NCBI GenBank assembly: GCA_047459655.1
Contig: JAJREF010000005.1
Span: 288,001-352,000 of the forward strand
Source: Rhabdochlamydiaceae bacterium
GTDB lineage: Bacteria; Chlamydiota; Chlamydiia; Chlamydiales; Rhabdochlamydiaceae
Reading direction: 5' to 3'
DNA length: 64,000 nucleotides
A model generated the notes under the pieces. It searched no databases. It was not told the DNA's origin and saw nothing but the letters and a program-made list of their open reading frames with translations. The translations under genes and the position numbers were made by a program. Below are positions 31,082-31,910 of this stretch, one piece after another. Each line of letters begins with the position of its first letter. The first letter of the stretch is position 1.

Positions 31082-31910
31082 AGACCTCTGCACAACTCTG
31101 GCAAATCGCTAAAATCGCGCTTTTTCTGCAGATTTTATTTTTCATAATCGAGTTAGGTGGGGCCTTACGGCCCCGACCTACGTGCGACCGGTATGTCGCT
31201 AAACTAGAGGGTGAAAGTCCCTTACGGGCTCTTGTAAGGAGAACCGTTAGAGAAGGCAAGGGTGTCCACCGCGAGGTGGAATCTGAAGAAAGCCGTATAC
31301 AAAATGCTGACCTGACGAACAGGAAGCGCATATGAGGCAGTGACTCTTGGATGAGAATGCGTAGAAATTCAAAGTCCAATACTTACATAGAAGGGTCCAT
31401 GTAGATGCGACAGGCTAGCAGGAAAGTGTTGTGAATTACCCGGTGAGATCTGCATTCATGCCCGACTATTACCCGACACAAGAGGGGAACGACGGAGCTA
31501 GCGGAGTCTCTGAGAGATGCCGTGAAAGGTGCAGAAGTCAGCAGACGGCATAGTAATTCGTCGAAAGACGATGAAGGCCTGAACATGAAAACGAAGGGAA
31601 GAATCTAACCCTCTATGGGAACAAGGGTCACAGAAACGAAAAGGCCAAAACAAAGGACTCAGGACGGAATCCTGTACCCCCTCTGTATGGTGTGATGGTT
31701 GACTGGACGGGAAAGAAATTCGAACCTACCTGGCTGGGAAGGATACTGTTGATGCGATGCATACAACAACAGGACGATCGGCTAGGTCATAGTGATCATG
31801 AACCGCCGTATACGGTCCCGTACGTACGGTGGTGTGCGAGGACGGGAGCCTAATGGCTCCCTCCTACGCGATTCGATTTTTTGTTTTTCCACCGTTGTGC
31901 AGAGGCTTCT
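31082..31910. mobile_element. Family B palindromic MITE-like element interrupted by a group II intron
   Basis: Terminal inverted repeats CCTCTGCACAAC / GTTGTGCAGAGG; about 140 bp after intron removal. Confidence 0.75.
31182..31872 (+). ncRNA. Group IIC intron, ORF-less, 691 nt
   Basis: 5' GTGCG; IIC-type domain I (GGGTGAAAGTCCC, GCAAGGGTGTCC, GGAATCTGAAG, GGATGAG..CAAAGTCC); DV GAACCGCCGTATACGG..CCGTACGTACGGTGGTG with CGC triad; DVI ending CCTACGCGAT; no RT ORF. Confidence 0.93.

Follow-up and report, generated by a model that had tools for sequence, protein, structure and literature searches.

Bacterial group IIC introns share a set of features including a short domain V with a CGC triad, the AGGAA motif, a 4-bp EBS1-IBS1 pairing and an upstream stem-loop (PMC1702495). 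They have no endonuclease, their choice of site depends on the stem-loop plus a short IBS1, and ORF-less members can be served in trans (PMC1702495, PMC4424553, PMC7306698). Targets on record are terminators, attC sites and "other inverted repeats" (location after terminators "or other inverted repeats" is the wording of PMC1702495), and both twintrons and truncated introns are common in bacteria (PMC1702495, PMC4424553, PMC3522654, PMC8919778, PMC8643678, PMC12584367, PMC9769881, PMC7306698). ORF-less introns are described as rare in bacteria, nearly always found beside a related intron with a possibly trans-acting protein, and are treated as having lost mobility (PMC4424553); the commonest neighbors of group II introns are other introns (PMC7306698).

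This report describes an ORF-less group IIC intron, termed Y, and its insertion site in a window of 64,000 nt (G000:C5:288001-352000) from a Rhabdochlamydiaceae genome of 1.61 Mb, assembled in five contigs and about 82% complete. Hairpin targeting by IIC introns is already known, and the site is a modest variation on it that involves no new mechanism. Its unusual detail is that it most likely consists of three layers, in which the target hairpin is the tail of a dead intron, termed X, read backwards. A literature search by title and abstract, with most subscription papers outside its coverage, yielded no description of IIC introns inserted in MITEs or in the reversed domain VI of another intron.

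Y is comparable to several described systems. Like B.h.I1, GsI-IIC and O.i.I1, it has a CGC-type domain V, the AGGAA motif, a 4-bp EBS1-IBS1 pairing and an upstream stem-loop; unlike them, it is devoid of an ORF and the hairpins it occupies are not terminators but the center of a MITE and, most probably, an antisense domain VI. In terminator-associated IIC introns IBS1 follows a T run, whereas that of Y lies within the 3' arm of the stem, and EBS1 is highly variable in the lineage of Y. In common with the ORF-less introns served in trans in the account of PMC4424553, Y shares its genome with a related RT-bearing intron; unlike the ORF-less introns of that account, it occurs as two identical copies at unrelated sites and has a relative with the same deletion in another genome (G308). 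Y also resembles the twintrons of Methanosarcina, Trichodesmium and Thermosynechococcus in being inserted in what appears to be the sequence of another intron, but the outer element X is antisense and only 35 nt long, and the link is a DNA hairpin instead of sequence-specific homing. Since X would be reduced to 35 nt on the opposite strand, the locus is not a twintron and no nested splicing is expected. As in IIC-attC introns, Y is inserted inside an imperfect palindrome and not after a terminator, although its palindromes resemble MITEs in having terminal inverted repeats and being bordered by target-site duplications. The window showed no integron context, and the motif typical of attC insertion (TTGT type) is absent from the junction of Y.

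THE RESIDENT INTRON

The coordinates of the features discussed are collected in Table 1. The boundaries of Y were set by an identical copy with other flanks (G000:C3:40903-41593, hereafter the twin). The intron begins with GUGYG and terminates in AY, its edges are precise, and it scores 136.9 bits with RF02001 and 49.6 bits with RF01998 (the stretches recognized as group II intron domains being 31265-31435 and 31499-31579), while the match to RF00029 (domains V-VI, 31801-31872) reaches 39.4 bits, 0.6 bits below the gathering score of 40. Domain V is short and carries the CGC triad, domain VI has a bulged A, and the AGGAA motif of the epsilon-prime region is present at 31321-31325, within the RF02001 match. 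In both copies of Y, GUAG pairs 4/4 with CTAC next to a terminal hairpin, which replaces IBS2.

Table 1. Position, strand and supporting evidence of the features of the insertion site and of related elements (window coordinates unless a contig is given).
Feature	Position	Strand	Evidence or remark
Family B left arm, 65 nt	31082-31146	+	62/65 identical to the empty copy C1:558108
Probable remnant of intron X, limited to the 3' terminus with domain VI and oriented against Y	31147-31181	-	32/37 identity; model R1
IBS1 (CTAC), final four bases of the 5' exon, within the 3' arm of the hairpin	31178-31181	+	4/4 complementary to EBS1
ORF-less group IIC intron Y	31182-31872	+	691 nt; Rfam and identical copy elsewhere
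EBS1 of Y (GUAG in RNA), d3 loop, domain I	31361-31364	+	RF02001 alignment; co-variation with IBS1
Domain V of Y, short IIC type, CGC triad	31803-31832	+	RF00029 alignment; sequence
Domain VI of Y, bulged A at 31866	31836-31872	+	Fold; model R1, 57 bits, a score that includes Y's own domain VI as a member of the model
Family B right end, 38 nt, degenerate; terminal repeat core 31894-31905	31873-31910	+	Alignment to empty copies
Internally deleted family B copy	14966-15050	+	Without hairpin; not an empty target
Intron Z	C1:701565-699634	-	1932 nt, carries RT

The EBS1 and IBS1 assignments are confirmed by the pairing seen across the introns that could be parsed (13 introns out of 32 loci), which is 4/4 in 10 introns, comprising 7 distinct EBS1 sequences, 3/4 in 2 and 1/4 in 1. 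The first base of the 3' exon is T in the window copy and A in the twin, and it is C or T in 26/36 intron ends, a count that omits ten distinct AGC-type ends (L032-L045). Such a bias would fit a presumed EBS3 of G.

No ORF is found in Y. Domain IV retains only decayed ends of an RT gene, and the RT-maturase without endonuclease that is proper to class C is absent from it, so Y is an ORF-less derivative of this class. The stem-loop plus T run expected directly upstream of a terminator-targeting intron is lacking at the window copy, no terminator-like site occurs on the + strand in 30750-32300, and the flank sequence of the twin is not terminator-like either. Y is a true ORF-less IIC intron that behaves like its class, recognizing a hairpin that ends in CTAC by means of EBS1 GUAG.

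THE HAIRPIN AND ITS SURROUNDINGS

A first-pass annotation of this DNA had proposed that excision of the intron rebuilds a near-perfect hairpin within a dispersed palindromic element, and both parts are borne out. Removal of Y in silico joins 31146-31181 to 31873-31878, which together form a hairpin of 18 bp interrupted by two bulges of one base each (DNA folding energy -16.8 kcal/mol), and the hairpin lies between the terminal motifs of a repeat family, named family B, at 31085-31096 and 31894-31905. At the junction between Y and the 3' exon, 4 bp of the rebuilt right arm come from family B. The 35-nt 5' part folds by itself with a z of about -4.8, a value matched in 0/200 shuffles.

An assembly artefact at this site is ruled out by short-read contigs of run X1, which may come from the source sample; they match both sides, with 1 gap but 0 substitutions over 30700-31829 and without any difference over 31843-32137. 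No contig joining 31181 to 31873, i.e., an empty allele, was found in runs X1, X2, X3 and X5, a search made on assembled contigs, in which rare variants drop out.

The site occupies a variable region between genes, on the upstream side of a T3SS ATPase gene. In five relatives (G001, G002, G003, G005, and G008) the DNA upstream of this gene differs, no orthologous empty site is present, and family B was not found by a search run without a positive control. The same neighborhood has other peculiarities: the T3SS ATPase gene itself (29485-30800, - strand) is broken into two ORFs, copies of the palindromic families A and D are packed into the intergenic region (30935-31057, 32093-32260, and 34270-34425), and an ORF of 518 aa (32634-34190, + strand) has no Pfam match and does not occur at this place in the five relatives. 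Elsewhere in the window (4347-4682) a tandem repeat with a 42-nt period lies inside an ORF.

THE HAIRPIN IS ABSENT FROM EMPTY FAMILY B COPIES

Family B comprises 21 loci, 14 of them near full length (about 163 nt). It is short, non-coding and multi-copy with terminal inverted repeats, and a perfect 5-bp target-site duplication at 5/14 empty copies makes it MITE-like. The element in the window departs from this pattern: BLAST matches to family B stop at the end of the left arm (whose terminal inverted repeat has its core at 31085-31096), the center has lost about 59 nt and holds 35 foreign nt plus Y instead, and no target-site duplication surrounds the element.

The hairpin had been attributed to family B, an attribution that does not hold, as it is absent from 14/14 near-full-length empty copies. 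Its 35-nt core occurs once in the genome, the only other match having 10 mismatches. The shorter intron-free relative reported at 14967-15050 does exist, although it is deleted inside and does not contain the hairpin. Family B as a homing target was consequently rejected, none of the 14 empty copies carrying hairpin and IBS1. Likewise discarded were three intervals of 695-846 nt between loose family B termini, which are chance pairings and not transposons.

The flank of family B is not common to the intron copies either, which share only 7 nt before the junction. Placement of other copies after ordinary terminators, with no empty full-length element bearing the hairpin, had been named as the outcome that would speak against homing into a MITE; there is indeed no such empty element, but the twin does not follow an ordinary terminator.

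A PROBABLE REVERSED DOMAIN VI UPSTREAM OF Y

The sequence of the hairpin points to another origin. On the minus strand it shares 32/37 positions with a chlamydial intron end (28/41 for the plus strand) and has the features of a domain VI, namely a stem whose 5' arm contains a bulged C, a loop of GNRA type, a branch A near -7, and a terminal CTCGAT that ends in GAY. The plus-strand reading of this putative remnant of X is the hairpin that precedes the insertion of Y.

A model of domain VI built from 15 intron ends (R1) gives 31147-31181 25.5 bits on the minus strand (E 7e-5) and 10.7 bits on the plus strand, and the reading of the plus strand as an intron end was thus rejected. For comparison, the antisense of the domain VI of Y obtained 8.9 bits and the next best match in the window 13.1 bits. 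Across the genome R1 detects only three intron ends, one solo domain-VI-like hairpin and the window site. Because R1 holds two close X-like ends, one of them found through a pattern derived from the hairpin, the score is not fully independent and the contrast between strands weighs more than the score itself. The solo hairpin (C1:294704-294740, - strand, L145) scores 32.7 bits and has no domain V; it is directly 3' of the stop codon of a gene and is absent from that place in five relatives.

A pattern made from the minus strand had 14 matches in the genome collection. Thirteen were intron ends, preceded by a domain V and closing with CTCGAT, and the remaining one was an unrelated hairpin; the 13 ends are divided between two MAGs (11 and 2) and represent two independent genomes, both chlamydial. 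The introns to which these look-alike ends belong are one of CGC type and one of AGC type. The eleven ends of a single MAG (L032, L034-L040, L042, L043, and L045) have an AGC-type domain V and varied 3' flanks, and their domain VI is about the same as that of the CGC-type intron.

The candidate remnant has one extra base per arm, possibly an additional T-A pair, and its lowest stem is cut by the junction. The extra bases were not seen in any natural domain VI retrieved from the genome collection or metagenome contigs. No other sequence of X was detected in the genome.

OTHER INTRONS OF THE GENOME AND A CANDIDATE HELPER

Three introns of this kind occur in the genome: Y, its twin and a longer intron, Z. 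The two copies of Y are 100% identical and their sites unrelated, implying recent movement. Z encodes an unbroken class C RT-maturase of 471 aa that has no endonuclease (RVT_1 plus GIIM, with TIGR04416 above cut-off), whose best PDB match is the GsI-IIC RT (E 9e-140) and which is the sole RT found in the genome. This enzyme likely mobilizes both copies of Y in trans. Y and Z are 97% alike over the last 92 nt but merely 81% over the first 443 nt (domains I-III), which tells against this part of the proposal.

The surroundings of Z are themselves complex. Its flanks are mismatched, the 5' one being a hairpin in a repeat located after a tRNA gene and the 3' one the right arm of a family D element, beginning 4 nt beyond the central hairpin of that family, and EBS1 of Z pairs 3/4 with either candidate 5' exon. 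Such flanks would fit a recombination between two Z sites. No contig among those of run X1 spans the 5' junction, and one X1 contig does not contain one 134-nt unit of the tRNA-linked repeat beside Z. An ISNCY (IS1202-like) transposase in three pieces (C1:701900-703380, L002:9009-10257) adjoins Z and has terminal sequence of family C on both sides.

MITE HAIRPINS AS LANDING SITES

Homing to a hairpin of family B, as originally suggested, fails; the broader idea of landing in MITEs holds for the twin, which is in family C, and for introns of relatives. Excising the twin from the central hairpin that it interrupts restores an intact family C element of 163 nt, with 1 mismatch to an empty copy. 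Family C has the attributes of a MITE, including inverted ends, a 3-bp duplication (AAT/ATT at 5/6 copies tabulated), movement and empty copies. In four of the latter the center is intact and the site is offered on both strands. A fifth copy (C3:163243-163403) shows compensatory changes in the stem that keep the hairpin and remove CTAC on both strands.

Family D, with 84 loci, has ends in common with an 1182-bp IS5 element of the same genome. This IS5 element (C3:6644-7825, L144) is the likely autonomous partner of family D, and a piece of 586 bp is found at C3:54550. Family C resembles IS5-family MITEs in its 3-bp duplication, and one copy entered a family D element with such a duplication (C2:181840-182001, L146). 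Unlike for family D, no autonomous partner sharing the ends of family B or C was found in this 82%-complete genome.

The supply of targets was estimated from the 9173 CTAC sites of the genome, of which 27 lie at the end of a hairpin with 8 bp or more and an energy of -8 kcal/mol or better, measured over 40 nt. Family C accounts for ten of these strong hairpins, the domain VI of Y and Z, in sense orientation, for three, and the site of Y in the window for one. Ranked by the strength of the terminal hairpin, both occupied sites fall in the top 14, and supply alone predicts that one of two insertions falls in family C. That MITEs often serve as landing sites is likely due to the number of strong hairpins they provide and not to recognition of one MITE family by Y; ordinary hairpin-seeking in a genome whose repeats provide many hairpins is the likely description of this behavior.

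Matches to the 5' end of Y occur in 38/401 genomes of a sample of the phylum. In four other genomes of this order, related introns were found inside palindromic elements present in several copies. Of 10 loci read in G218, 8 held an empty copy and 1 an occupied one; G270 has 1 occupied and 1 empty full copy; in G275, whose flank gave 34 matches, 2 copies are occupied and empty ones were read at 4 loci; and the intron flank of G308 has 17 matches. These four flanks were chosen for their palindromic look, so no frequency of MITE use can be derived from them. Other introns of relatives follow plain terminator-like hairpins (e.g., L006, L013, L021, and L022) or weak ones. In G246 (contig C58, L100) a deleted intron copy of 382 nt begins right after the end of a full-length intron in sense tandem, so a domain VI hairpin is able to serve as a target. 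Of 400 genomes scored, one other, G308, which belongs to another family, contains an ORF-less intron (696 nt, 602/696 identical to Y) in which domain IV is deleted as in Y.

ORIGIN OF THE SITE

The data are best explained by retro-insertion of Y after a hairpin ending in CTAC that was most likely an antisense domain VI remnant lying in a damaged MITE and not a native hairpin (probability about 0.8). According to this scheme X would have come first, entering a family B copy in minus orientation just past the small central stem-loop of that copy, a position suggested by the 3' end of X meeting family B exactly at 31147/31146. The part of X upstream of domain VI would then have been lost along with about 59 nt of the family B center, either by 5'-truncated integration or by later deletion. 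The leftover domain VI, strong as a hairpin and ending in CTAC when reversed, would have received Y, probably with the RT of Z acting in trans. The site is thus most likely a one-off made of a MITE arm, a backwards intron remnant, a new intron and a second MITE arm. Several observations weigh against this explanation: no intact intron X was found, the extra base in each arm of the remnant has no counterpart among the domain VI sequences retrieved, the family B stem-loop preceding the presumed point of X insertion has a low stability (45 nt, -3.7 kcal/mol), and the order of events is reconstructed with neither an empty allele nor an orthologous empty site seen. Metagenome contigs contain 0 tail-to-tail antisense matches and none of 47 loci of relatives has an antisense domain VI beside an intron start, hence no second insertion of this type is available and a general antisense-twintron habit is unsupported. 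A quite unlikely variant has Y entering the antisense domain VI of a complete X, followed by a deletion about 2 nt past Y that took the rest of X and the family B center, in which case the long hairpin would never have existed as an empty site. The two bases after Y do fit both the continuation of X domain VI and the right arm of family B, and the absence of a duplication at the window element, compared with a perfect 5-bp one at 5/14 empty copies, agrees with a deletion that brought together arms from a single copy or from two. Such a deletion would, however, have to end within about 2 nt of the 3' end of Y, the identity of the Y copies speaks for recent insertion whereas the right arm looks decayed, and the missing tail-to-tail arrangement in metagenome contigs counts against this variant as well.

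Retro-insertion into a reversed remnant has also to be set against a native origin of the hairpin in a multi-copy subfamily of family B whose empty members were lost, remained unassembled or reside in other strains. Y does lie between both family B terminal repeats, the genome is about 82% complete, and the twin as well as introns of several relatives land in MITE hairpins; still, this model is largely refuted and very improbable, given that 0/14 empty copies have the hairpin, that the genome holds no second copy, that the genome collection yields intron ends for 13/14 look-alikes plus one unrelated match, and that metagenome contigs provided one unrelated perfect hairpin and viral contigs none. 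Little credence is given, too, to a rearrangement in which a template switch at X domain VI, or the joining of opposed intron ends, created CTAC and the stem. The right arm across the junction is almost exactly the reverse complement of the left, including the 4 bp that come from family B, and the CCTACTC contained in the family B center is a possible microhomology, but a single extra T-A pair in X domain VI accounts for both odd bases, and a rearrangement would alter the way in which the hairpin was formed while leaving its derivation from an intron end unchanged.

CONCLUDING REMARKS

A broader idea, rather doubtful at present, is that this lineage, including its long-lived ORF-less branch, has shifted from terminators to MITE hairpins and domain VI by retuning EBS1, so that scars of earlier insertions become landing pads. 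If so, solo domain VI scars of 5'-truncated integrations would feed a self-sustaining chain of nested parasites, and the 4-nt EBS1 would be retuned to the repeats of each host.

The genome constitutes a small natural test set, with one ORF-less intron, one candidate helper RT and both occupied and empty sites. The site also exposes a trap for annotation, as a "target hairpin" beside an intron may itself be intron debris. Taken at its most likely reading, it supports the view that IIC introns read the shape of DNA (a hairpin and four bases) and use any strong hairpin, among which would be the centers of MITEs and even the reversed tail of a dead intron.
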